From: an uncultured Actinomycetota bacterium
GTDB lineage: Bacteria > Actinomycetota > Actinomycetes > Mycobacteriales > Mycobacteriaceae
Length of the DNA: 64,000 nt
Assembly: GCA_963786995.1 (NCBI GenBank)
Contig: CAWBBH010000001.1
Span: 110,550-174,549 of the forward strand
Direction of reading: 5' to 3'
The position numbers and the translations under genes were made by a program. The number at the start of each line of letters is the position of its first letter. Within the stretch, counting starts at the first letter, position 1. The notes under the pieces are model-generated. The model was not told where the DNA came from. It saw nothing but the letters and a program-made list of their open reading frames with translations, and searched no databases. This document shows, one piece after another, positions 6,060 through 56,305 of the stretch.

Positions 6060-8573
<2,514 letters not shown>

Positions 8574-45098: not shown

Positions 45099-45205
45099 GT
45101 ATGGAGGCTAGACCGGCCGCTGACGCTTCCGATGATTTACGGCAAAGCGACTTGATCACTCGACAAGGAGGTTTAACCTCCGAGCTAACCCTCCAAGAGA
45201 GTGAT

Positions 45206-48200
45206 ATGTCGCGAATTTTCCTGAGCCATTCGAGTCTCGACTCACGCGAGGCATTGGCCCTCAAACGGTGGTTGGTAGAGCAGGAGCCGCCCCTGGCGAC
45301 TGACATCTTCCTCGACATCGATCCTGAGGTGGGGCTCCGTCCGGGCGAGCGATGGAAGGACAGACTGCAGCAGGCCAGTGCCAGATGTGAAGCCGTGGTC
45401 TGCCTCCTCTCGAGCAACTGGGAGGCGTCCCACGAGTGCAGGACCGAATACCGCGTCGCGGAGAATCTGAACAAGCAGATCTTGTGTGCCCGCCTCGAGC
45501 CCTCGGCCGGTGATGACTTGACCTCGGAGTGGCAGCGGTGCGACCTGTTCGGCGAGAGTGACTTGACCTCGGTCGACCTGGACGACGGCCCTCCGGTCAT
45601 GTTCGCCACCAAAGGGTTGTACCGGTTGCGAGACGCCATCCGCGGCACCGGCATCAGCGCGCACTCGTTCGTATGGCCGCCCCCCGACGACGTGGACCGG
45701 GCTCCATATCGCGGGTGGGAGCCATTCGAACAGGTCGATGCCGCCGTGTTCTTCGGCCGGGACGCGGCCATCGTGCACGGACTGGACGAACTCCGCGGCA
45801 TGAGAGTGGCTGAGACGAAGTCGCTGTTCGTCGTGTTGGGTCCGTCTGGCACAGGTAAGTCGTCGTTCCTACGCGCGGGCCTGATGCCGCGTCTGGCCCG
45901 CGAGGATCGTCGTTTCACGCTGTTGGGCGTCGTGCGGCCCGGTCGCAACGCGCTCACGGGTGATGCCGGTCTGGCAGCGGCGATTTGGCACGCTCGAGAC
46001 AGGCTGGGCCTGTCAGCACCAAGCCTGGGCGAAATCAAGACCGCGTGCCACGGCGACGTCGAGCGAGTCCGCGAGTTGCTGATCGAGGTCCAGCAGACGG
46101 CGACGGATCGGTTACCGGATCCGGTGAGCGGCGATGACAAGCCGGCCCCTCCGACGTTGATACTCCCCCTGGACCAGGCCGAGGAATTGTTTTCCGCCGA
46201 CGCCGGAGCCCAGGGAGCGGAACTGATGTCGTTGATTCGACGGCTGACGGTACGAACGGAACTGCAACCGCTGAGCCTCATCGTCGTCGCCACCATCAGG
46301 ACCGACCGGTTTGAGGTGATGCAAACGCACCCCGAACTGGCTGGTGTGGAATCAAGGGTCTTCGATGACCTCAAGCCAATGCCGCCGACCCAGTTCAAGG
46401 AGGTGATCACCGGCCCGGCGGCTCGTGCCAGCGAGGGTGGCCGCCGCCTGACTGTTTCACCTGACCTGGTGGAGCGGCTTCTCGTCGACGCCGCCGAGGG
46501 TGCCGACACACTGCCGATGTTGTCGTTGACGCTGGCGCGCCTATATGCCGACTACGGGTCGACGGGTGAGTTGAGAGTCGAGCAATACGAGGCGATGGGC
46601 GGGATGCGCCGTGTCGTCGAGACAGAGATCAACGAGATTCTCGCCGCCGATCCGGACCGACGGCGCCACCAACTCGACTGTCTGCGAGCCGCTTTCATTC
46701 CGTGGCTCGCCACCGTGAACCCGGAGAATGACCATCCGTTGCGTCGGATGGCCCGCTATGACGACTTACCCGAGGAAAGCAGACCGCTGATCGACGCACT
46801 GGTCGCCAAGCGGCTGCTGGTCAAGGACCAGCTCGACGGCCAAGTCGTGGTCGAGGTCGCCCTGGAAAGCCTACTGCGCCAATGGGATGAATTGTCAGAA
46901 TGGCTTCGCGAGCAACGCCATGAACTCCAGGTTGCCGACGACGTCGAGCGTGCCGATACGGCGTGGAAAAGCAACAGCAGGGATGCGGCCTGGCTTCTCG
47001 CCGGTTCTCGTCTCGCCGACGCCGAGAGAGTCGTGAGCTCTCCGACTTTCGCCCAGCGCATGAATCCCGTTCGCGAATACATCGACGCTTCTCGACAAAG
47101 CGAGAACGATCGGTTAGCGGCGGAGGAAGAGCGCCGGCACGCCGAGTTACACAATGCGCGAGAACGGCAAGCAGTTGCCGAAGCGCACGCGAGGGACTTG
47201 CGCAAGCGATCGCGGATCCTGCGTGCCGTTGTTGCAATCACCGCGGCGGTCGCCGTCGTTGCCGTCGTCGGCCTCGTCTATGCCGTAAGCGCCCGCGGTC
47301 AGGCGCAAGACCGGTTCCGCCAGGCCACAAGCGTGCGGTTGGCCTCCGATTCCGACAACATGTTGAACGGCAGCAGGCCTGGCAGTGATGAGAGGGCCCT
47401 GCTCGAGCTACTTGCCGCAAATGCGCTCTCTCCGAATACATTCGACCAGAACATGTACTCCGTCGGTGTCAAGACATTCAACACCCTCAAGCTGATCGAC
47501 CCCTCAATGGGGGTCTTCGGTGCCATCTTCAGCCCCGACGGCCGCCGCTTCGTCGCAGGAGGCGATAACGGAACGCTGCGCTTGTACGACGCTCAGACCG
47601 GCCTTCAGCTGGGTTCGGACCTGGTCGGACACACCAAGTGGATTGACGGTGCCACCTTCAGTCCCGACGGTCACAAGATCGCTTCCGTAAGTGACGATCT
47701 CACCGTGCGACTGTGGAACGCCGACACCGGTCGACCCATCGGCCAGCCGATGTTGGGCCATCAAGACCAGGTGTGGGCGGTATCGTTCAGCCCGGACGGG
47801 CACATGCTCGCGTCCGGCAGCGTGGACCGCACCATGCGGCTGTGGAACGCCGACACCGGCCGACCCATCGGCCAACCGCTGAGACATCCAGACAGGGTCA
47901 TCAGCGTGGAATTCAGCCCCGACGGCCGGCACATCGCCAGCGGGGACGCCGACGGAATATTGCGGTTGTGGGACGTCACGACCGGGCAGCAGTCCGGGCC
48001 AGCGTTGAAGGGTCACACCGGAGAAGTGATCGATGTGGCGTTCAGTCCAGACGGCCGCCGAATCGCGTCGGCGAGCGGCGACGGGGACGTGCGGTTGTGG
48101 GACGCCCAGACCGGCTTGCCGATCGGCGAACCCCTGGCCGCTCAGGGGAGCCGGGTGCTCAGCGTGGCGTTCAGCCCCGACGGTCACAGGATTGCCTCCG

Positions 48201-49428
48201 GCAGTGGTGACGGCGCGGTAAGGCTGTGGGACAGCCGACACTCGCCAGTTGCTTGGTGCGCCCATGCTGGGCCAGAAGGGTGGAGTGTGGACTCTATCGT
48301 TCAGCCCCGACGGAACCCGCCTGCTCTCGGGATCGCAGGACGGGACGATCCGATTGTGGGATGTCGGCATACGTCGGCCGCTCATCGGCCACATCGGGGG
48401 CGTGGCCAGTGTGGCGGTGAGCCCGAACGGACATCGCATCGCGTCGGCTGGTGACGACGGCACGGTGCGCTTGTGGGACGCCGACAACGGCCGCCCGATC
48501 GGCAAGCCGCTTGTCGACAGCGACAAGCCGTTGTCCAGCGTCGCGTTCAGCCCGGATGGACAGCGTCTCGCGGTCGCCGGCGCCGACGGCACGGTCTCGG
48601 ATGTGGAACGCGGACACGGGCACGCTTATCGGTGACCCGATCAATCCCGGGCAGGGACCACTGACGAGCGTGGCGTTCAGTCCCGATGGACGCCGTTTGG
48701 CCATCGGCGGTGGCGACACGTCGGTTGGCGTATCGAGCGACCACGATGGCACCGTCCAGTTGTGGGATGTCAAAACGTTCCGTCCCGTCGGTGGGCCGCG
48801 GAAACACGGCGAACGGGTGAACAGTGTTGCGTTCAGTCCTGACGGGAACCGCATCGTCTCCGGCGGCAACGAGGGTGACAACACCGGCTCGGTGAGGTTG
48901 TGGGACGCCAACACAGGTCAAATGATTGCGGCAACCACGATCGGCGAGGCGCAGCGGATTGTATGGGCCGTGACCTTCAGCCCCGACGGGCGCCGTGTCG
49001 CGGCCGCCGGTGTCGACGGTTTCATTCAAGTTTTGGATGCCGGCGGGCTCGACACAATCGGTGAGCCGATGAAAGGCCATGAGGACAGGGTCGTTTCTTT
49101 GGCGTACAGCCCGGACGGCCGCACAATCGCTTCCGCCAGTCGCGACGAAACCATCCGGTTGTGGAACGTGGAGTCCGGCCAGCAGGTAGGTGATGCGTTG
49201 ACCGCGCACACCGACAACGTGAACAGCGTGGTGTTCAGCCCTGACGGCCAGCGCATCGTTTCGGGCAGCACCGACGGTACTGTCCGAGTCTGGCCAGCCG
49301 CTGCAGGTTCAAAAGAACTGTGCGAGAAGTTGACCCAAAACATGAGCCACAAGCAGTGGAACGAGTGGGTGTCGACCGACATCGACTACATCAAGGTCTG
49401 CCCCGATCTGCGGATCCCGCCGGACTAG
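45206..49428 (+). pseudogene. TIR domain / nSTAND-like P-loop NTPase / hydrophobic helix / 14x WD40-repeat protein, paralog 1 (about 1407 codons; two apparent +1 frameshifts near 48235 and 48597)
   Basis: The TIR is MSRIFLSHSSLDSREALALKRWL...VVCLLSSNWEASHECRTEYRVAE. The NTPase lead-in is PYRGWEPFEQVDAAVFFGRD. Walker A is VVLGPSGTGKSS (45838-45864) and Walker B is LILPLDQAEELF (about 46157-46192). A coiled-coil is followed by the helix ILRAVVAITAAVAVVAVVGLVYAV (47216-47287). There are 14 repeats of the (F/Y)SPDG...RLW(D/N) type. The tail is NMSHKQWNEWVSTDIDYIKVCPDLRIPPD. Length is 3n+2. Confidence 0.8.
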
Positions 49429-49430
49429 AC

Positions 49431-52400
49431 ATGTCGCGAATTTTCCTCAGCCATTCCAGTCGTGATGCGCGTGAGGCGCTGGCCTTGAAGCGCTGGTTGG
49501 TGGGCCAGGAGCCGCCGCTGGCGACCGACATTTTCCTCGACATCGATCCGGAAGTGGGCCTACGGCCGGGAGAGCGATGGAAGGACAGGTTGCAGCAGGC
49601 CAGTGCCAAATGTGAAGCAGTGGTGTGCCTGCTGTCGAAGAACTGGGAAGCGTCGCATGAGTGCAAGACCGAGTATCGCGTCGCGGAGAATCTGAACAAG
49701 CAGATTTTGTGTGCCCGCCTCGAGCCGTCGGCCGGTGACGACTTGACGTCGGAGTGGCAGCGCTGCGACCTGTTCGGCGAGAGTGACTTGACCTCGATCG
49801 ACGTGGGCGGTGGACCGCCGGTGATGCTCGCCACCGGTGGCTTGTACCGGTTACGAGACGCCATCCGCGGCACCGGCATCAGCGCACATTCGTTCGTATG
49901 GCCGCCGCCAGACGACGTCGATCGGGCTCCGTATCGCGGGTTGGGAACCATTCGAACAGGTCGATGCCGCCGTGTTCTTCGGCCGGGACGCGCCAATTGT
50001 GCATGGGCTCGATGAGCTGCGCGGCATGAGACTGGCCGAGACGAAGTCGCTGTTCGTCGTGTTGGGCCCGTCTGGCACAGGTAAGTCGTCGTTCCTCCGC
50101 GCGGGTTTACTGCCACGGCTGGCCCGCGAAGACCGTCGGTTCACGCTGTTGGGCGTCGTGCGGCCGGGTCGCAACGCGCTCACCGGGGATTCCGGCCTGG
50201 CAGCGGCCATTTGGCATGCTCGAGACAAGCTGGGCTTATCGACACCCAGCCTCGGCGGGATCAAATCGGCATGCACCGAGGACATGAGGCGACTTCGCGA
50301 GCTGCTGCTCGAAGTACAGCAAGCAGCCGCGGATCGGTTACCGGATCCGATTCGCGGCGATGAGAAACCGACTCCCCCGACGCTGATTCTGCCGTTGGAC
50401 CAAGCCGAGGAATTGTTCTCCGCTGACGCCGGAGACCAAGGGGCGGAGCTGATGTCGCTGATTCGGCGGCTGACGGTGCGAACGGATCTGCAACCGCTGG
50501 GCCTGATAGTGGTCGCCACCATTCGGACCGACCGATATGAGGTCATGCAGACCCATCCCGAACTGGTCGGCGTCGAGTCACGGGTTTTCGACGACCTCAA
50601 GCCAATGCCGCCGACCCAGTTCAAGGAGGTGATCACCGGCCCGGCGGCTCGTGCAAGCGAAGGGGGCCGGCGCCTCGCAATTTCACCGGACTTGGTGGAG
50701 CGGCTTCTCGTCGACGCCGCCGAGGGCGCCGACACACTGCCGATGTTGTCGTTGACGCTGGCGCGACTATATGCCGACTACGGCTCGACGGGTGAGTTGA
50801 CAGTCGAGCAGTACCAGGCGATGGGCGGGATGCGCCGTGTCGTCGAGACAGAGATCAATGAGGTGCTCGCCACCGATCCCGACCAACGAAGCCGCCAACT
50901 CGATTGTCTGCGCGCGGCTTTCATTCCATGGCTCGCCACGGTCAACCCACATAACGACCAGCCGATGCGTCGGGTGGCCCGCTATGACGACCTGCCCGAG
51001 GAAAGCAGACCACTGATCGACGCACTGGTCGCCAAGCGGCTGTTACTCAAGGACCAGCGCGACGGCCAAGTGGTGGTCGAGGTCGCCCTGGAAAGCCTGC
51101 TGCGCCAGTGGGATGAGTTGGCAGACTGGCTTCGCGAGCAACGCCAGGAACTTCAGGTCGCCGATGACGTCGAGCGAGCCGATACCGCATGGCGAAGCAA
51201 CGGCAAAGATCCGGCATGGCTTCTCGCGGGTTCCCGTCTTGCTGACGCCGAAAAAGTTGTCGGCTCAGCCACCTTCACACAACGGATGAATCCTGTTCGC
51301 GAATACCTCGACGCTTCTCGACAAAGCGAGAACGAGCGGGTCGCCGCGGAGGAAGAACGTCGGCACTCCGAATTACGCAATGCGCAAGAACGGCAAGCAC
51401 AGGCCGAAGCCCACGCGACCGCCTTGCGCAAGCACGCGACCGCCTTGCGCAAGCGGTCGCGGATCTTGCGTGCCGTTGTGGCAATCACCGCGGCAGTCGC
51501 CGTGGTTGCCGTCGTTGGACTGGTCTATGCCATCAGCGCCCGCCATCAGGCGCAAGACCGATTCCGCCAGGCGACCGGCGTGCGTCTGGTCGCCGAGTCG
51601 GACGGCATCTTGGACGACAACAGGCCGGGCAGTGATGAAAGGGCCATGCATGAGCTACTTGCCGCGAATGCGATCTCTCCGAACACATTTGACCAACAGT
51701 TGTACTCAGCGGCGGTCAAGACCTTCGACACCCTCAAGCTCATCGACACCTCGACGGGAACCTTCGGTGGCGCCCTCAGCCCCGGTGCCGCCTTCAGCCC
51801 TCGCGGTGACCGCTTCGTCACTGCAGGCGACCACGGAACATTGCGCATGTGGGACACTCAGACACGGCCAACAGGTGGGCAAAGACTTTACCGGACACAC
51901 TGAATGGGTTAACGACGCTGTGTTCAGTCCCGACGGTGACCGGCTCGCGACCACAAGTGACGATCGCACCGTCCGGCTGTGGAACGCGGACACTGGGGAA
52001 CCGATCGGCCGGCCAATGACAGGCCATGAAGACGAGGTGTGGGGCGTGGCGTTCAGCCCCGACGGGCTCATGATCGCCACGGGCAGCGTGGACACCGACT
52101 TGCGGCTGTGGAACGCGAAAACCGGCCAGCCCATCGGCCAACCAATTGACCATCCCGCCGAGATTGTCTGCGTGGAATTCAGCCCCGACGGACGGCGCGT
52201 CGTCACTGGCGGTTACGACGGGGCTGTACGGATTTGGGACGTCGGCACCGGGCAGCAGATCGGTCCTCCACACAGAGTCCACGAGGACGACACGACGGAA
52301 ATCATCATGGACGTGGCGTTCAGCCCCGACGGCCGCAGACTCGCTTCCGCGAGTGCCGACGGGGATGTGCAGATATGGGACGGGCGAAACCGGCCTTCCG

Positions 52401-53673
52401 ATCGGCGCTCCCCTGACCGGTCACGGGACCCAGGTGATGAGCGTGGCGTTCAGCCCCGACGGCCACCGGCTTGCTGACGGAGGTAATGACGGTGCGGTGC
52501 GGCTGTGGGACGTCGACACCAGGCAATTGCTCGGTGCCCCCATGATGGGCCACAAGAGCGCGGTGTTTACTTTGTCGTTCAATCCGGACGGAACCCACCT
52601 GCTGTCGGGAGCGCAGGACGGGACGATCCGATTGTGGGATGTCGGCATACGTCGGCCGCTCGTCGGCCACATCGGAGGAGTGTCGAGTGTGGCGGTGAGC
52701 CCTGACGGAGATCGCATCGCTTCGGCTGGTGACGACGGCACGGTGCGGTTGTGGAACGCCGACAACGGCCGTCTGATCGGCAAGCCGCTCATGGCCAGCG
52801 GGCAGCCGCTGACCAGCGTCGCTTTCAGCCCGGATGGACGGCGTCTCGCCACCGCCGGCGCCGACGGCACCGTCCGGATGTGGGATGTCGGACGCAGGCC
52901 GGCCGTTGGTGCGCCGATCAATCCCGGGCAGGGACCACTGACCAGCGTGGCGTTCAGTCCCGAAGGACGCCGCGTGGTTATCGGCGGTGGAAACAGCGTC
53001 CGGTTGTGGGATGTCCAAACGGGCAGTCCCATCGGTGAGCCGCGGATACACGGCGAACTGGTACACAGCGTCGCGTTCAGTCCCGACGGCAACCACATCG
53101 CCTCTGGCGGCATGGAGACCGGCTACAACGGCACAGTGGGGTTGTGGGACGCCAACACAGGTCAATTGATACGGGCAGTCCCAATCGGCGGCGCGGATGT
53201 AGTTGTGTTCGCAGTGTCCTTCCGCCCCGACGGGCGCCGCATCGCGGCTGCGGGTGGCGACGGCGTCATTCAGCGGTTGGATGCGGGCAGTCTCGACAAA
53301 GTCGGCGAGCCAATGCAAGCCCATGAGGACACGGTCGTTGCGTTGGCGTACAGCCCGGACGGCCGCTCGCTCGCGTCCGCGAGTCTCGACGAAACCATCC
53401 GGGTGTGGGACACCGAGTCGGGCAAGCAGGCAGCTGATGCGTTGATCGGCCATACCGACAACGTGAACAGTGTTGCGTACAGTCCCGATGGCCAGCGCAT
53501 CGTTTCGGGCAGCACGGACGGTACTGTCCGGGTCTGGCCTGCCATTGCAGGTCCACAAGACCTGTGCGACAAGCTCAGCTGAGAACATGAGTCATAAGCA
53601 GTGGAACGAGTGGGTGTCGCCGGACATCGACTACATCAAGGTCTGCCCCGATCTGCCGATCCCGCCGGATTAG
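49431..53673 (+). pseudogene. TIR domain / nSTAND-like P-loop NTPase / hydrophobic helix / WD40-repeat protein, paralog 2 (about 1414 codons; four apparent frameshifts near 49945, 51865, 52385, 53578)
   Basis: The architecture matches paralog 1: MSRIFLSHSSRDAREALALKRWL...WEASHECKTEYRVAE; VVLGPSGTGKSS; LILPLDQAEELF; helix ILRAVVAITAAVAVVAVVGLVYAI (51463-51534); WD40 repeats; tail NMSHKQWNEWVSPDIDYIKVCPDLPIPPD. Length is 3n+1. Confidence 0.8.
51412..51453 (+). repeat. Perfect 21-bp tandem duplication (CACGCGACCGCCTTGCGCAAG x2) inside paralog 2, encoding HATALRK-HATALRK
   Basis: Two identical in-frame units at 51412-51432 and 51433-51453. Paralog 1 has a single related unit (HARDLRK). Confidence 0.9.
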
Positions 53674-53701
53674 CGAGGTGAGCGGAACCCGGTGCCCGTT
53701 C

Positions 53702-55474
53702 CTACCGGTCATCGCCGATGCGCGTCAGCTGCCCGGCATGGCCTGGGCTGGTGGCGGATCGGACGGCTCTGAGATCGACCAGGGCGAGCGCTTCAGGGAT
53801 CTGACGTACCGCGTCGCGATCGAGATCGGCGATGTCGTCCGGCAACTCGTCGAACGGAACCAGGTAGGGCGTGACCTTTCGCTCAGCGTCTTTGGGTCCC
53901 GACCGCCAGCCGGACTCCAGTCGTTCGGCGACCCAACGTTTGTGCTCGGCGATCGCCAGCATCTCGAATTCCTCGTCGGTGAATTCGAACGCGGGTGCCC
54001 CTATGTCGTGCAGCGGCACGATGGTGCATCCGATGCTGCGCAGCTTTACCGGCATGTCGCGGGCTTGAGCTCGGTTGGACTCCTTGCGCGACTCGTCCAG
54101 TTCGGACCATGACGGCGCCTCCTTGCCGTTGGCGAGTTGACCTGCGCGCCAACGGCGGTGGATGGCAACCGCGATCTTCTCGAATGACCCCCCCGCGACA
54201 AGCTCGGCGGTGCACGTGCGCTCCAGCGCCGGGAACACCTCGACGTTCGTCAGCTCGCCACTGGCAGTCGCGTCGGTGATGAGCCGGGCCACTCCATCCG
54301 TGCGTGACAACGCGACGACCATCGGGACGGCGGGATCAAGGTAGTGGCGCAATGTGAGTGTGGCCTCGATCGCGTCTTCGTCGAGGTAAGCGTTCACATA
54401 GGCGCACGTTATCGGGGGCGCTCCCGCGTCGGCATGCACGGCGTCGAGTCGGTGAAGATCACGGACGGACGTCGACGATTCGACGAACCGGCACACCGAC
54501 TCCAGGGCCGGGTACTGGTCGAGAAGCGCGCGAACGCGTTCCTCGGCGCGGTCGTCGACAACCGTGACCCACAGGGGGGTGTCGTCGGGTCGGTCGGTAA
54601 ACCAGCCCCATGCCGAGTGTTTCACCAACCACGTTCCCAGCGAATCAAGGCGACTGACGAGGACGTGCGGGCTGCCGTTATCGGCCTCGACGGGGAACTC
54701 GTCGAGGCACAGCTGCGCACCGACCTCGTCGATGTTGAAGAAGTCCAGTGACGATGGCGCACCACCCGACGAGTTGGCTTCCTGCACGCGCAACAGCCGG
54801 CACAGCTGCGGGTTGCCGATTCGAGCCAGACATCGCAGTTTGTTGCTTCGGCGCTCTGTCGAAAGTCGCCGCGCGACGGCGACGATCTCGGTGTTCACCG
54901 CATCATTAGGGCACACCGCAAGAAGCTGAGACGCGCGCTGAACTCCGGCTCCCCGCAGCGTGTCTTCCAAGCGTGCATCGCCCACGACGACCGGGCTGCG
55001 CCAACTTCGACACACTTCCAAGAGCGGATTCGCGGGTTCTATTTCAACGACGACTACCCGGTGGCCGGCCTTTCGAAGGCGGTCCCCGAACAAGCTGCCG
55101 ACATAGCCCAGCCCGCAGATGACGATGTGACCGCGCATCAGCGGGATGCGGAGCTGTTGAAACCGATCGTGAAACAACAGGGCCAGCCCGCTCAGCGCGG
55201 CCCAGCCAGACACGAGCGGCGCAAGGATCCGAGCGATCTCGATCTTGACCGGTAGCCCCGTCGTGGCAGGCGACCCCATCAAAAACAGCTTGAAGGTGTT
55301 GTAGGCGATGTCGGTCGCCCTAGGGGGATGCTTAGTTGCCCCCTCGACGTACAACTCGTTCAGGTATTCGGTATATCCCAGCCAGCCAAGCGTGAACGCG
55401 ATCGCGGCGGCGAAACCGAGCAAAGCCCAACGGAAGTCAGCGATGAAGCGCCGAATCGACCGGAGGACGCTCAT
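53702..55474 (-). CDS. Membrane protein with 2 N-terminal TM helices (channel-like, no GYG filter), RCK/TrkA-N NAD-binding Rossmann domain and two C-terminal RyR (ryanodine-receptor repeat) domains
   Basis: The TM helices are WALLGFAAAIAFTLGWLGY and IARILAPLVSGWAALSGLALLF. TrkA-N is GHIVICGLGYVGSLFGDRLRKAGHRVVVVE...VVVGDARLEDTLRGAGV. The RyR-like repeats are EKIAVAIHRRWRAGQ...SWSELDESRKESNRAQAR and EMLAIAEHKRWVAERLESGWRSGPKDAERKVTPYLVPFDELPDDIADLDRDAV. The 590-aa frame is intact. Confidence 0.7.
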   Translation of the reverse strand: MSVLRSIRRFIADFRWALLGFAAAIAFTLGWLGYTEYLNELYVEGATKHPPRATDIAYNTFKLFLMGSPATTGLPVKIEIARILAPLVSGWAALSGLALLFHDRFQQLRIPLMRGHIVICGLGYVGSLFGDRLRKAGHRVVVVEIEPANPLLEVCRSWRSPVVVGDARLEDTLRGAGVQRASQLLAVCPNDAVNTEIVAVARRLSTERRSNKLRCLARIGNPQLCRLLRVQEANSSGGAPSSLDFFNIDEVGAQLCLDEFPVEADNGSPHVLVSRLDSLGTWLVKHSAWGWFTDRPDDTPLWVTVVDDRAEERVRALLDQYPALESVCRFVESSTSVRDLHRLDAVHADAGAPPITCAYVNAYLDEDAIEATLTLRHYLDPAVPMVVALSRTDGVARLITDATASGELTNVEVFPALERTCTAELVAGGSFEKIAVAIHRRWRAGQLANGKEAPSWSELDESRKESNRAQARDMPVKLRSIGCTIVPLHDIGAPAFEFTDEEFEMLAIAEHKRWVAERLESGWRSGPKDAERKVTPYLVPFDELPDDIADLDRDAVRQIPEALALVDLRAVRSATSPGHAGQLTRIGDDR

Positions 55475-55813
55475 CGGGACCCATGCACATCAGTGATACG
55501 GCGGCGCCTGCGCGGGCCACTTCGGATCGACCGCATCGAGCGAGCGTAACCGAAAAGATGTTAAGGCAAACAGAAATGCGACATGGTGACTCGGATCGAG
55601 ACCCTGGCTGGGCCAGTCGGGACGGCTCCCGCAGGTCGGCGCAACAGACTGAAAATATCCTGACCGGCCTGTGCCGTCTTCGCGATAATTCTACCGGCGG
55701 CAGGCTTTCAAGGTCAGAATTCGGTTTACTGAATAGGCCGATATCGCGGCGAAATAGAGGCAATACTCCGTACAACGGCTGAACGGCTACGTTCGGGCCA
55801 TTGAGGGGGAAAC

Positions 55814-56305
55814 ATGAATATCGCCGGTGTGTTTGGCGCGGCGGCCGTCTTCGCTGCAGTCGCTATCGGGTTTCCGAGCCCCGCTTGGGCTGGCGGTCCG
55901 ACTACCCCTACTTCACCCAGTGTTCCTGCCCCGGCCGCCTCCGTTGGGGAGTTGAGCGGCACCTATACCTTCACTGTGGACTCCGGAAACACAACTACGT
56001 GGACGATCACACCGTGTGGGCCCGGGTGCGCCAATGTCGCAGCGACAAATTCGTCGGCGGGTAACGCGCCCTATAGCGGGCAAGCGCAGTTGGCGGGCGA
56101 TCGCTGGAACATGACGGCTGCGCGGTCCGATGCCCTCACGTGCGACGACAACACCCGAGCCCCGGGAACGACCATATACTCATGGGGCGCAACAACACTC
56201 GCCGGCACAGCGTTCAGCCAAGCGGGCGCCGGCATGTGTGGCAGCACTGACCCGAACGGTTTCCGTGGTCCTACTTCCGAGTTCACCTTGACGAAAGTCG
56301 CCTAA
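55814..56305 (+). CDS. Secreted hypothetical protein (signal peptide, Cys-containing beta-rich domain)
   Basis: It starts with the signal peptide MNIAGVFGAAAVFAAVAIGFPSPAWA, then a Pro/Thr linker and a 130-aa domain with 4 Cys. I recognise no family. Confidence 0.55.
   Translation: MNIAGVFGAAAVFAAVAIGFPSPAWAGGPTTPTSPSVPAPAASVGELSGTYTFTVDSGNTTTWTITPCGPGCANVAATNSSAGNAPYSGQAQLAGDRWNMTAARSDALTCDDNTRAPGTTIYSWGATTLAGTAFSQAGAGMCGSTDPNGFRGPTSEFTLTKVA

Follow-up and report, generated by a model that had tools for sequence, protein, structure and literature searches.

A family of channel-like RCK-RyR membrane proteins encoded beside TIR genes, and its probable role as an effector of TIR signalling

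The 590-aa mycobacterial protein encoded at positions 53702–55474 belongs to a large, uncharacterised family that serves as a dedicated genomic partner to NAD-cleaving enzymes with a TIR domain and, in certain lineages, to RelA/SpoT-SLOG-RyR proteins together with NUDIX hydrolases. Its members appear to follow the plan of a tetrameric cation channel with an RCK gate, in which two transmembrane helices enclose a re-entrant pore helix and a tandem-Rossmann gating module like that of GsuK comes next; to this plan a C-terminal domain of the ryanodine receptor (RyR) Repeat12 type has been added. Since relatives of the protein adjoin TIR enzymes across distant bacteria, it is probably a membrane effector for a TIR-made, NAD-derived signal. 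We favor the reading that this signal gates the protein and that its sensor is the RyR module, either alone or jointly with the RCK pocket.

The locus and the predicted architecture of its membrane protein

The features of the locus are given below, in coordinates of the window, i.e., the whole stretch of 64,000 nucleotides that was analysed.

45167–49428, plus strand: TIR-nSTAND1-WD40 gene, copy A, in three reading-frame pieces (Pfam, tblastn, TIR HMM)
49194–53673, plus strand: TIR-nSTAND1-WD40 gene, copy B, in five reading-frame pieces (Pfam, tblastn)
53674–53701, no strand: 28-bp spacer between the convergent stop codons (copy B TAG at 53671–53673; target stop codon at 53702–53704)
53702–55474, minus strand: target gene, intact, ATG start, 590 aa (open reading frame list and translation)
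53759–53989, minus strand: RyR repeat 2, canonical, residues 496–572, with H511-x-x-W514, K528, D552 and R553 (Pfam)
53990–54208, minus strand: RyR repeat 1, divergent, residues 423–495, with H439-x-x-W442, W456 and R468 (AlphaFold2, Foldseek)
54230–54667, minus strand: second Rossmann-like (RCK2-like) domain, residues 270–415 (strand-helix alternation in the AlphaFold2 model, Foldseek)
54695–55126, minus strand: RCK1/TrkA_N Rossmann domain, residues 117–260 (Pfam TrkA_N at 117–233, E 2e-17)
55139–55249, minus strand: transmembrane (TM) helix 2, or inner helix, residues 76–112 (AlphaFold2)
55283–55318, minus strand: short pore-helix-like helix, residues 53–64, DIAYNTFKLF (AlphaFold2)
55346–55432, minus strand: TM helix 1, residues 15–43 (DSSP on the AlphaFold2 model)
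55688–55717, minus strand: sigma-70-like promoter match, weak evidence (9 of 12 positions matched; start codon about 214 bp further downstream)

Two TIR_2-nSTAND1-WD40 genes, arranged in tandem on the plus strand and each with the domains in the right order (Pfam), adjoin the target. The initial annotation had described the target as the only intact large gene beside this pair and had given the distance between the convergent stop codons as 28 bp; both statements are correct. Mapping by tblastn with intact orthologues from two related loci (L001 and L007) placed two frameshifts in copy A, near 48233 and 48597, and four in copy B, near 49940, 51858, 52375 and 53580, with no obvious long homopolymers at these sites. 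The orthologues in related mycobacteria are single intact open reading frames of 1410–1430 aa. A dN/dS of 0.11 for each copy, obtained from the nSTAND piece in the case of copy B, argues that the frameshifts are recent events or assembly error; the copy of the system found here may be inactive, or the assembly may contain errors. The TIR domains themselves, at 45212–45544 in copy A and 49437–49769 in copy B, retain an intact catalytic-Glu column in the TIR alignment. No intrinsic-terminator-like hairpin was found in the 28-bp spacer or within 53400–56000, and two sigma-70-like sites were found against 0.4 expected in shuffled sequence. The surroundings in the window consist of housekeeping genes with no defence island, and none of the PADLOC families matched the target.

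The target gene is under purifying selection (dN/dS 0.16–0.24 against four orthologues), and its product yielded an AlphaFold2 monomer model with a mean pLDDT of 85 and a pTM of 0.75. Taken together, Pfam, AlphaFold2 and Foldseek give a channel-like N-terminus with two TM helices, followed by two RCK/Rossmann domains in tandem and, at the C-terminus, by a Repeat12-like domain of two RyR repeats. Following a positively charged N-terminus, the topology runs TM1, pore helix, TM2 and then GxGxxG Rossmann domains, which is the arrangement of an RCK-gated 2TM protein; two TM helices flanking a pore-helix-like AYNTFKLFLMG segment, with no GYG, had been noticed before and were borne out by the reading frame and the model. 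W16, G30 and G33 of TM1 are kept in the family, and R82 and P86 of TM2 are invariant in the family column frequencies. The place of the selectivity filter, after the pore-helix-like helix, is taken by the loop LMGSPATTGLP. Over helix and loop the family consensus reads D..Y..LQLFxLESGxxxGPxPW, and the target has Gly at the family's Glu. A GYG or T-V-G-Y-G filter occurs in none of the 59 aligned family members. Because no recognisable filter is present and the loop sequence is only weakly kept within the Mycobacterium clade, ion conduction is putative.

The residue counts given here and below were taken from this 59-sequence family alignment, whose members share 30–53% identity. RCK1, which matched TM1088A and TrkA among PDB sequences, carries the dinucleotide motif G121-x-G123-x-x-G126 with E144 at the end of beta-2. 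These positions are conserved in 58 (G121), 55 (G123), 57 (G126) and 53 (E144) of the 59 sequences, with Asp replacing E144 in five others. An RCK/TrkA-N domain had been proposed at the outset; to this the AlphaFold2 model adds the second Rossmann-like domain at 270–415, which had gone unnoted. The glycine motif of this RCK2-like domain is a degenerate SRLDSLG in the target's clade and VVGLGxLG in the wider family, and the region gave no Pfam match when scanned by itself. Foldseek ranked GsuK first over the full length of the model (4gx2, E 9e-9; 4gx2/4gx5, E about 1e-8), then the TrkA ring, and then RyR3 Repeat12 and a Bt-hRyR chimera for the C-terminus; GsuK and TrkA, both with RCK domains in tandem, aligned over 400–580 columns. 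An identity as a TrkA, KtrA or Kef regulator was rejected because the target scored 33–36 bits against cut-offs of 290–700 for the NCBIfam K+ transport equivalogs (for example, 35.8 bits against 425), over the Rossmann segment only, and because it has a TM domain of its own.

Residues 423–572 are predicted to form a helical domain resembling R12, in which two repeats pack pseudo-symmetrically, modeled at a pLDDT of about 85–95. Both of the RyR repeats proposed initially are present in the AlphaFold2/Foldseek fold and both carry an HxxW motif, but repeat 2 alone passes Pfam: RyR (PF02026) matched residues 503–563 at 42.7 bits, above its gathering score of 27.4 (E 7e-11), while repeat 1 by itself remained sub-threshold (E 0.029). 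Sequence matches of repeat 2 in the PDB were 6uhi, 3nrt, RyR1–3 and a Bacteroides 'putative ryanodine receptor', with the HxxW and GW motifs conserved. Foldseek matched the 423–572 domain to human RyR3 Repeat12 and a B. thetaiotaomicron/human RyR chimera over approximately 160–195 columns, 9l9b, 6uhe and 6uhi each having a probability of 1.00 and a TM-score of about 0.5–0.6 normalised to the target chain. The best viral structural matches of the model (BFVD) were RyR-domain proteins of phages, actinophages included.

TIR genes around family members

In an exhaustive search the family amounted to 1,493 or more clusters (50% identity, E <1e-30), some of which may share only part of the architecture, and it extends over Actinomycetota, including Mycobacterium and Nocardia, and Chloroflexota. 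Genomic context was evaluated in 99 related loci, which formed 65 clusters at 70% identity; the distant contexts came from contigs found to encode relatives and from one metagenome scan. TIR domains occurred at a density of 12.7 per 100 kb at 0–1 kb from family members, falling to 0 at 4–6 kb and 0.7 at 6–10 kb (roughly 0.5 over all distances above 4 kb), an enrichment of more than 25-fold over the far flanks. An enrichment of TrkA-N+RyR genes next to TIR genes had been suggested as a check on the initial annotation, and the outcome was positive: the number of TIR domains within 4 kb was 23, whereas the far-flank rate predicts 1.3 (Poisson p of about 5e-21; with the upper confidence limit of the background, 2e-6). 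Of the 18 clusters flanked by 12 kb or more of sequence, 12 had a TIR gene and 15 had either a TIR or a RelA/SpoT-SLOG-RyR gene, leaving three with neither type of partner; about one third of the well-flanked loci had no TIR gene in reach.

A convergent TIR-nSTAND1-WD40 gene is kept in at least seven orthologous loci at 77–86% identity, and the seven closest loci have flanking genes in common. The co-occurrence with TIR genes is strongly enriched, however, and far exceeds what the synteny of close relatives would yield: it extends down to about 31% identity (Chloroflexota), with all gene orientations, varied TIR architectures and unrelated flanks. Relatives at 53–58% identity lie in different genomic flanks. 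Within this group, the M. paraffinicum relative adjoins TIR_2-PknH_C and that of Nocardia arizonensis adjoins TIR-WD40 plus TIR_2, while others lie next to TIR_2-WD40 plus CHASE2-TIR_2, next to two TIR_2-WD40 genes, or next to SIR2/TIR_2 together with nSTAND1-WD40 and a standalone RyR protein. The initial annotation had regarded the convergence of the genes as weakening the link; this convergence is confined to the Mycobacterium clade, and in distant clades the two genes run in one direction, 100–250 bp apart. In Chloroflexota-type metagenome relatives (31–38% identity) the TIR_2 gene lies 100–300 bp away and is often co-directional. At one distant locus a two-gene cassette of TIR_2 and a family member sits between an ABC transporter and recA, and no further effector gene is consistently present in such cassettes.

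All 11 of the neighbours checked with Pfam were TIR_2. In an alignment of 42 partner TIR domains, box 1 is conserved and the catalytic Glu column is retained in at least 80%, both copies of the window included. The partner TIR proteins carry WD40, TPR, PknH_C, CBM_11 or CHASE2 sensor domains, and many of them resemble single-pass receptors in which the TIR domain is followed by one TM helix and an extracytoplasmic domain. A neighbour class initially called 'unknown 800–980 aa' was dissolved, as Pfam identified its members as WD40 propellers. Iterated HMMs built for the SLOG/middle region and for these 'unknown' neighbours were discarded, having drifted onto the RyR repeat and WD40, respectively.

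The modules are also found fused. At least three assemblies (P0125/P0274, L026) encode TIR_2-nSTAND1-TrkA_N-RyR proteins in which RCK-RyR takes the place of the WD40 or STAND sensor repeats, and the fusion in L026 adjoins a canonical 2TM family member. The RyR module recurs in further partner proteins, namely RelA_SpoT-SLOG-RyR, AAA-RyR and standalone RyR, and NUDIX hydrolase genes accompany the RelA_SpoT-RyR variants. We found no account of RCK-RyR-for-WD40 fusions or of a partnership between STAND and RyR membrane proteins in the literature searched.

Candidate ligand pockets and alternative explanations

Two recent preprints on Thoeris cADPR isomers reported that phage RyR domains bind these isomers with nM affinity (PMC13232231; 10.64898/2026.06.04.730250, both 2026). 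Mutation of H129, W132, K147 or D171 in the RyR Tad protein gp68 of Pectobacterium phage CB1 weakened 3'cADPR binding approximately 100-fold (10.64898/2026.06.04.730250), and RyDEP of mycobacteriophage DyoEdafos binds and cleaves 2'/3'cADPR via the equivalent His, Trp and Asp (PMC13232231). We mapped the pocket on CB1 gp68 only, the RyDEP numbering being taken from the latter source; a tblastn search of the phage collection with the RyR region of the target did not retrieve DyoEdafos RyDEP. H511, W514, K528 and D552 of repeat 2 align with gp68 H129, W132, K147 and D171, such that four of the six gp68 ligand residues (H129, W132, K147, H154, K170 and D171) are present. The two changed positions are T535 in place of H154 (Ser, Thr or His across the family) and L551 in place of K170, and the putative ligand of the target may therefore differ from 3'cADPR. 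Within the family, H511 is found in 59 of 59 sequences, H439, W456 and R553 in 58 each, W514 in 52 and D552 in 47, while K528 is Lys or Arg in 51.

That the protein receives an NAD-derived signal from the TIR genes, as was suggested initially, is in keeping with the conserved co-occurrence, but the pocket for that signal may need to be moved. The original proposal placed it in the RCK domain, whose GxGxxG/Glu site is indeed conserved; with the His/Trp/Lys/Asp pocket and the phage data taken into account, the RyR module is at least as likely a sensor, and since both sites are conserved, RyR and RCK1 may both act. Were the TIR proteins plain NADases, RCK1 might instead read a fall in NAD+ or a rise in ADPR, in the manner of the NAD(H)/ADP-binding GsuK and KTN domains, with the RyR module being structural or ATP-binding. 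The near-invariant GxGxxG and E144, the crystallisation of the top structural match, GsuK, with NAD and ADP (4gx2, 4gx1), and the presence of ATP, ADP or AMP-PCP in human RyR3 Repeat12 structures (6uhh, 9l9b, 9l90) are all consistent with such an NAD-level sensor. We nevertheless regard it as unlikely, because it leaves unexplained both the recurrence of the RyR module across partner proteins and a His/Trp/Lys/Asp pocket as well conserved as the Rossmann motif, and because the nM binding by phage RyR domains speaks against it. It is improbable, too, that the RyR module is a host off-switch or buffer that, like phage RyDEP and RyR Tad, hydrolyses or sequesters the TIR product and so guards against TIR activity that leaks, in which case the membrane and RCK regions would merely localise or regulate it. 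Equivalents of the RyDEP catalytic dyad (H511 and D552) are present, and the NUDIX hydrolases beside the RelA_SpoT-RyR variants show that signal turnover occurs in these loci. However, non-catalytic sponge homologues share the His and Asp of RyDEP, which are hence no predictor of catalysis (PMC13232231); a conserved 2TM pore-like domain with tandem RCK would be needless in a simple buffer, and the two-gene cassettes would then be left with no consistent effector gene.

Because RCK-RyR occupies the sensor-repeat position of STAND proteins in the fusions, an RCK-RyR ring might recruit TIR-STAND proteins or TIR receptors at the membrane, so that the membrane protein would act upstream of or alongside the TIR, for instance as a reporter of envelope or ionic stress, and not as its effector. 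RCK rings of MthK mix soluble and tethered RCK, and similarly mixed rings are possible where the L026 fusion adjoins a canonical 2TM member; many partner TIR proteins are, moreover, membrane-anchored themselves. Such a scaffold or co-sensor is likewise unlikely in our estimation, given that the partner TIR proteins bring their own varied sensors, a pattern typical of variable sensors combined with a constant effector. We consider it very improbable that the protein is just a common K+ channel or a transport regulator that lies near TIR genes through inherited synteny or chance. The database names ('potassium channel family protein', 'NAD-binding protein', 'Kch'), the housekeeping surroundings and the flanks shared by the seven closest loci would agree with it. 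Against it stand the TIR adjacency, which persists at 31–58% identity amid unrelated flanking genes, for every gene orientation and for a variety of TIR architectures, the enrichment over the far flanks, the absent K+ selectivity filter with NCBIfam K+ scores far under the cut-offs, and the existence of the fusion proteins.

Relation to known systems and the proposed pathway

Among systems that signal through TIR domains, Thoeris now comprises types I–XI; closest to the target are type X, which combines ThsB with an 'ion channel', ThsK, and types II, V and VII, which also have membrane effectors (10.64898/2025.12.03.692087). As in these four types, a TIR gene with an intact catalytic Glu lies beside a gene whose product joins a putative nucleotide-binding module to a membrane-spanning part, and the logic proposed for the target, in which a TIR makes an NAD-derived signal and an effector disrupts the membrane, is that of Thoeris. 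The partner TIR proteins are, however, not short ThsB proteins; their TIR_2 domain is fused to STAND-WD40, WD40, TPR, or a TM helix with an extracytoplasmic domain. Type X itself was ruled out, as the ThsK candidate is unrelated: the ThsB neighbour in Vibrio sp. JCM 19052 has 208 aa and a filter-like TLTYGGF motif, lacks TrkA_N and RyR, and shows no similarity to the target (E 0.4). None of the known Thoeris effectors (ThsA, ThsC–ThsL) matched the target, and the Thoeris preprint and its supplements make no mention of RyR, TrkA or RCK (10.64898/2025.12.03.692087). The neighbours in the window are of the TIR-nSTAND1 NTPase type (PF20703) known from conflict systems of actinobacteria and cyanobacteria. 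Such systems were reportedly described by Aravind and co-workers. TIR-STAND proteins are usually seen as single-protein sensor-effectors, that is, as self-contained NADases that need no separate effector.

In GsuK of Geobacter sulfurreducens and in MthK, a cytosolic ring of RCK domains gates a 2TM K+ channel; GsuK has two RCK domains per subunit and binds NAD+/ADP. The target resembles GsuK in its TM1, pore helix, TM2 and tandem Rossmann domains and in the GxGxxG motif with its acidic residue, though at an identity of just 13–17%; it differs in having no TVGYG, with the LMGSPATTGLP loop there and L-E-S-G in most of the family. To our knowledge GsuK has no RyR domain and no linkage to TIR genes has been reported for it. 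With phage RyDEP and gp68 the target shares the Pfam family PF02026 and the fold. Those phage proteins act by removing the signal and are small, soluble homodimers with a single repeat per chain, whereas the target has two fused repeats on a channel-like body and is encoded by the host beside a putative signal-making enzyme. The R12 domain of the animal ryanodine receptor has a fold like that of the two-repeat domain and is likewise part of a protein of the cation-channel type. The two channel bodies have no relationship to each other, being of the 2TM RCK type in the target and a six-TM giant in RyR. Binding of cADPR to the animal R12 domain is under debate (PMC13232231). No earlier account of a membrane effector of the host with a RyR domain came up in the literature searched (RyR/TrkA/SLOG/STAND combinations), in which subscription journals were thinly covered.

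In the gating scheme that we favor, activation of a sensor-bearing TIR protein, here TIR-nSTAND1-WD40, would convert NAD+ into an ADP-ribose-derived messenger, and this TIR product would be the ligand of the RyR module, its receptor, possibly bound jointly with the RCK1 dinucleotide pocket. A conformational shift of the cytosolic ring would then open a non-K+-selective pore, and ions conducted through it would collapse or change the membrane potential, leading to growth arrest, abortive infection or a physiological response. Counting against this scheme are the divergence of repeat 1, the two changed pocket residues, the missing selectivity filter, the loci with no TIR gene in reach, the lack of a PADLOC match, the housekeeping surroundings, the frameshifts in both TIR genes of the window, and the usual view of TIR-STAND proteins as self-contained. 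The output is presumed to be defensive; since many partner TIR proteins are receptor-like, with extracytoplasmic domains, the pathway may reach beyond phage defence.

A wider reading, which we put forward tentatively, is that of a widespread, undescribed second-messenger pathway of bacteria. In this pathway receptor-type TIR proteins would make, from NAD+, a nucleotide derived from ADPR, and this nucleotide would act on the RyR Repeat12 domain of a cation channel and so gate it directly. The receptors would be either cytosolic, with STAND, WD40 or TPR, or single-pass and 'Toll-like', with extracytoplasmic PknH_C, CBM or CHASE2. Besides phage defence, the pathway would have a part in sensing the envelope or the environment. 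The RyR 'sponges' of phages would be copies of the receptor domain captured from the host, and the pathway would be a prokaryotic counterpart of the animal link from cADPR to RyR, and possibly even its evolutionary origin.

The family is absent from current defence-system catalogues and, if the effector role is true, it represents a new and abundant class of effectors for TIR signalling; the RyR-domain proteins of phages, actinophages included, would then be explained as possible mimics of the ligand-binding module of a host receptor. In bacteria, moreover, a channel-like protein with a RyR domain of the Repeat12 type would then lie beside an ADP-ribosyl cyclase-type enzyme, so that the debated direct action of cADPR-type nucleotides on RyR R12 becomes testable in a small, tractable protein. 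Lastly, the layout of TIR, one TM helix and extracellular domain in many partner TIR proteins, together with the pairing of some family members with RelA/SpoT-SLOG-RyR plus NUDIX genes instead, suggest a nucleotide-signalling network that is broader than phage defence.

The 590-residue protein

The open reading frame at 53702-55474 (minus strand) was confirmed as a real gene with an ATG start and 590 encoded amino acids, and dN/dS values of 0.16-0.24 against four orthologues indicate purifying selection. Pfam searches identified a TrkA_N domain at residues 117-233 (E 2e-17) and a single RyR repeat at residues 503-563 (E 7e-11). The structure predicted from a 41-sequence alignment (mean pLDDT 85, pTM 0.75) displayed the following features, including a second Rossmann-like domain that had been overlooked in the initial annotation:

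Predicted structural features of the protein
N-terminus: helix
residues 15-43: TM1
residues 53-64: short helix, DIAYNTFKLF
between the short helix and TM2: loop, LMGSPATTGLP
residues 76-112: TM2
residues 117-260: Rossmann domain (RCK1)
residues 270-415: second Rossmann-like domain
residues 423-572: all-helical domain

A Foldseek search of the PDB with this model returned as its top whole-length match GsuK (4gx2/4gx5, E ~1e-8), a 2TM channel whose subunits each contain two RCK domains and which was crystallized with NAD and ADP. The TrkA ring ranked next, and the C-terminus matched the Repeat12 RyR repeat pair of human RyR3 and a Bacteroides/human RyR chimera. The best viral structural matches were phage RyR proteins, including those of Rhodococcus and Arthrobacter phages. 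We retain the designation "double RyR" because of the fold and the two HxxW pairs (H439/W442 and H511/W514), although repeat 1 alone scored below the Pfam threshold (E 0.029). GYG was looked for in the protein and is absent; as modeled, the body of the protein is an RCK-gated channel fold lacking a K+ filter.

Bacterial Na+ channels possess a glutamate-ring filter, TLESW. In an alignment of 59 family members, most carry L-Q-L-F-x-L-E-S-G-x-x-x-G-P past the pore helix (columns of residues 62-75 of the 590-aa protein), and the L-E-S-G portion resembles this filter. We place little weight on the likeness, since our protein reads LMGS at these columns, with Gly in the Glu position.

Association with TIR genes

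Two tandem genes converge on the gene under study, and their extents were determined using intact orthologues of 1410-1502 aa from related loci as probes:

TIR genes of the window (Pfam)
45167-49428, plus strand: TIR_2-nSTAND1-WD40 copy A, three reading frames, 2 frameshifts
49194-53673, plus strand: TIR_2-nSTAND1-WD40 copy B, five reading frames, 4 frameshifts

The 28-bp convergent spacer proved exact (copy B stop at 53671-53673, stop of the 590-aa protein at 53702-53704). No obvious homopolymers were seen at the frameshift sites of either copy, and the in-frame pieces gave a dN/dS of ~0.11 when compared with intact orthologues. An intact orthologous TIR-nSTAND1-WD40 gene is carried, for example, by Mycobacterium sp. 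B14F4 (L002). Farther along, the amidase ORF at 56535-57578 matches only the N-terminal half of its profiles (positions 1-225 of 445 in Pfam Amidase; NCBIfam scores under the cut-off) and is possibly a further gene that is frameshifted or truncated in the assembly. An orthologue of the 590-aa protein in the related MAG MFD09368.bin.1.59 (L007:10001-11779; L-numbers denote loci with family members or related genes) is broken by internal stops or frameshifts, which supports indel errors in such MAG assemblies. On the strength of the low dN/dS, the half-length amidase ORF and the broken orthologue, the breaks in copies A and B stem from very recent decay or from errors in the assembly. The other neighbors in the window are housekeeping genes (VIT1, an ATP-grasp protein, a YkuD transpeptidase, TreS and the amidase).

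An exhaustive search recovered at least 1,493 representative clusters for the family (E below 1e-30), some of which may have part of the architecture only. Full-length members at 30-40% identity are numerous, and a metagenome scan contributed 80 further loci with identities down to ~30%. A TIR HMM was built iteratively on six-frame ORFs of all loci; Pfam confirmed TIR_2 for 11 of 11 matches checked. Most TIR domains, also in relatives at 31-38% identity, lie no more than 1 kb from the family gene. After clustering of loci at 70% identity, TIR density per 100 kb was 12.7 (0-1 kb), 4.1 (1-2 kb), 6.6 (2-4 kb), 0 (4-6 kb) and 0.7 (6-10 kb). The enrichment check proposed in the initial annotation thus revealed a strong excess: 23 TIR domains were observed within 4 kb, where the far-flank rate predicts 1.3 (Poisson p ~5e-21; p 2e-6 if the background is set to its upper confidence limit). 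Of the 18 clusters flanked by at least 12 kb, 12 had a TIR gene no more than 8 kb away. In distant clades most pairs are co-directional and separated by 100-250 bp; members of the Mycobacterium clade typically form convergent pairs spaced 6-56 bp apart. Divergent pairs were found too. An ordinary K+ channel lying beside TIR genes by chance is effectively excluded.

Individual loci were selected for long contigs, independently of TIR content. The convergent arrangement is kept in seven orthologous loci (77-86% identity), which we count as a single observation because their flanking genes are also shared. Within the tier at 53-58% identity, where the flanks are unrelated, the M. paraffinicum relative has a convergent TIR_2-PknH_C gene at 16 bp; that of Nocardia arizonensis converges with the gene of a WD40 protein that matches our custom TIR model at its N-terminus, and is accompanied by a further, separate TIR_2 gene; that of Mycobacterium sp. 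OAE908 has a co-directional TIR_2-WD40 gene and, after it, CHASE2-TIR_2; and one metagenomic relative has TIR_2-WD40 genes on both flanks (n=2). The contig of protein P0107 (JGI 3300047160), from the same tier, encodes SIR2/TIR_2, an 1866-aa nSTAND1-WD40 protein and a standalone 160-aa RyR protein, while a search of L013 found no TIR gene. On the P0107 contig the 160-aa RyR protein lies directly upstream of the family gene, and Patatin and LSDAT_prok (SLOG) genes are also present. In a Chloroflexota-type genome, TIR_2 followed by the family gene forms a clean cassette with an ABC transporter on one side and recA/recX on the other. The simple TIR gene of the two-gene cassette in L095 is at 6811-7905.

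The partner TIRs retain box 1 and the column of the catalytic Glu. Those without STAND or WD40 domains begin with a TIR, continue with a single, strongly hydrophobic helix and end in a PknH_C, CBM_11, 3-keto-disaccharide-hydrolase-like (3keto-disac_hyd), Septum_form or TPR domain. Judged by sequence, this layout is a putative single-pass receptor topology in the style of Toll-like receptors, in bacteria. The CHASE2-type partner has the reversed domain order.

Proteins with a TIR, a helix and an extracytoplasmic-type domain (minus strand where marked)
L009:11717-13222(-)
L019:2593-4227
L027:8258-9730(-)
L061:2900-4552
L091:11767-12993(-)
L047:5698-6837
L012:14943-16583(-)

Candidate RyR pocket and RyR-bearing partners

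Two phage proteins of the PF02026 family, both Repeat12-like and both acting on Thoeris signals, have been described in 2026 preprints (PMC13232231; 10.64898/2026.06.04.730250). The mycobacteriophage protein RyDEP is a glycosidase on 2'cADPR and 3'cADPR via H75, W78, H100 and D117; most homologues tested bind 2'/3'cADPR, and two were shown to be sponges of nM affinity (PMC13232231). For 3'cADPR, RyR Tad gp68 has a Kd of 43 nM, with binding via H129/W132, K147/H154 and K170/D171 (10.64898/2026.06.04.730250). In our alignment, H129/W132 correspond to H511/W514 and likewise to H439/W442 of repeat 1, K147 to K528 and D171 to D552, whereas two pocket residues are not kept (H154 is T535 and K170 is L551). 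Across the 59 family members (30-53% identity), H511 is conserved in 59, H439 in 58, W514 in 52, Lys or Arg at position 528 in 51 and D552 in 47. The RCK1 residues G121, G123, G126 and E144 are as conserved as those of the RyR pocket.

Fusions of TIR_2-nSTAND1-TrkA_N-RyR, which lack the TM region and have RCK-RyR in place of WD40, are present in at least three assemblies; the L026 fusion is the divergent direct neighbor of a canonical 2TM family member. TIR-less loci recurrently encode RelA_SpoT-(TPR)-SLOG(LSDAT_prok)-RyR proteins of 830-1080 aa, usually with a small NUDIX gene, as well as AAA/MoxR-RyR and nSTAND1-TPR/WD40 proteins. The RelA_SpoT proteins accompany mostly TIR-less family members (L099 has a TIR gene too) and, with NUDIX, look like a second undescribed RyR-using nucleotide-signaling module. 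One Anaerolineae contig carries the family gene, WD40, NUDIX, RelA_SpoT-TPR-SLOG-RyR and a large TIR protein in a single co-directional array. A TIR or RelA_SpoT-SLOG-RyR-type partner was found in 15 of the 18 well-flanked clusters. AAA/bpMoxR-RyR proteins are present in L034 and L063, and ClpB-like double-AAA+ proteins recur beside family members without a detected TIR gene.

Fusions and recurrent partners
L026:1882-5268, minus strand: soluble TIR_2-nSTAND1-TrkA_N-RyR fusion, ~1130 aa (also proteins P0125/P0274)
RelA_SpoT-(TPR)-SLOG(LSDAT_prok)-RyR:
L029:1199-3910
L041:5101-7668
L043:1013-3598
L082:4544-7135
L063:4655-7882
L097:12541-15144
L099:13304-15793
ClpB-like double-AAA+ (AAA_2, with or without HEAT repeats):
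L034:4708-6885
L074:7711-9846
L089:4082-6298

A proposed receiver for TIR-made signals

A systematic TIR survey defined Thoeris types V-XI and 29 putative types, with an "ion channel" as type X effector (10.64898/2025.12.03.692087); RyR, TrkA and RCK are not mentioned in its text or supplements. We rejected identity with the type X effector, as the candidate beside ThsB of Vibrio sp. JCM 19052 has no similarity to our protein:

L101:3369-3995: probable Thoeris type X effector, 208 aa, flanked by two ThsB_TIR genes

This candidate has a K+-filter-like motif (TLTYGGF) and no Pfam domain. No PADLOC model matches the 590-aa protein, and the literature searched, itself of incomplete coverage, yielded no earlier description of the family.

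The best-supported reading is that the family is a constant membrane-embedded receiver of a TIR-made, NAD-derived messenger: the variable TIR partners would do the sensing and the constant family protein would receive the messenger. The initial annotation had proposed an effector opened by a TIR signal through its RCK pocket; the functional link is strongly supported by TIR adjacency, but the sensor is now placed in the RyR module, most likely so by analogy, given the phage RyR precedent. A second or alternative input would come through the dinucleotide pocket in RCK1, which is conserved. That the protein instead senses NAD depletion is unlikely. We consider a role as scaffold or co-sensor somewhat less probable again, and that of a host signal buffer, for which phage RyDEP and RyR Tad offer a parallel, the least probable of these. 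For the preferred receiver, ligand identity, conduction and biological role are points that we infer.

In kind, the system would be a variant of TIR/Thoeris-like signaling in which the effector family is undescribed and the TIR partners are of an unusual receptor type, and the 590-aa protein bears on the cADPR-RyR question in testable form.
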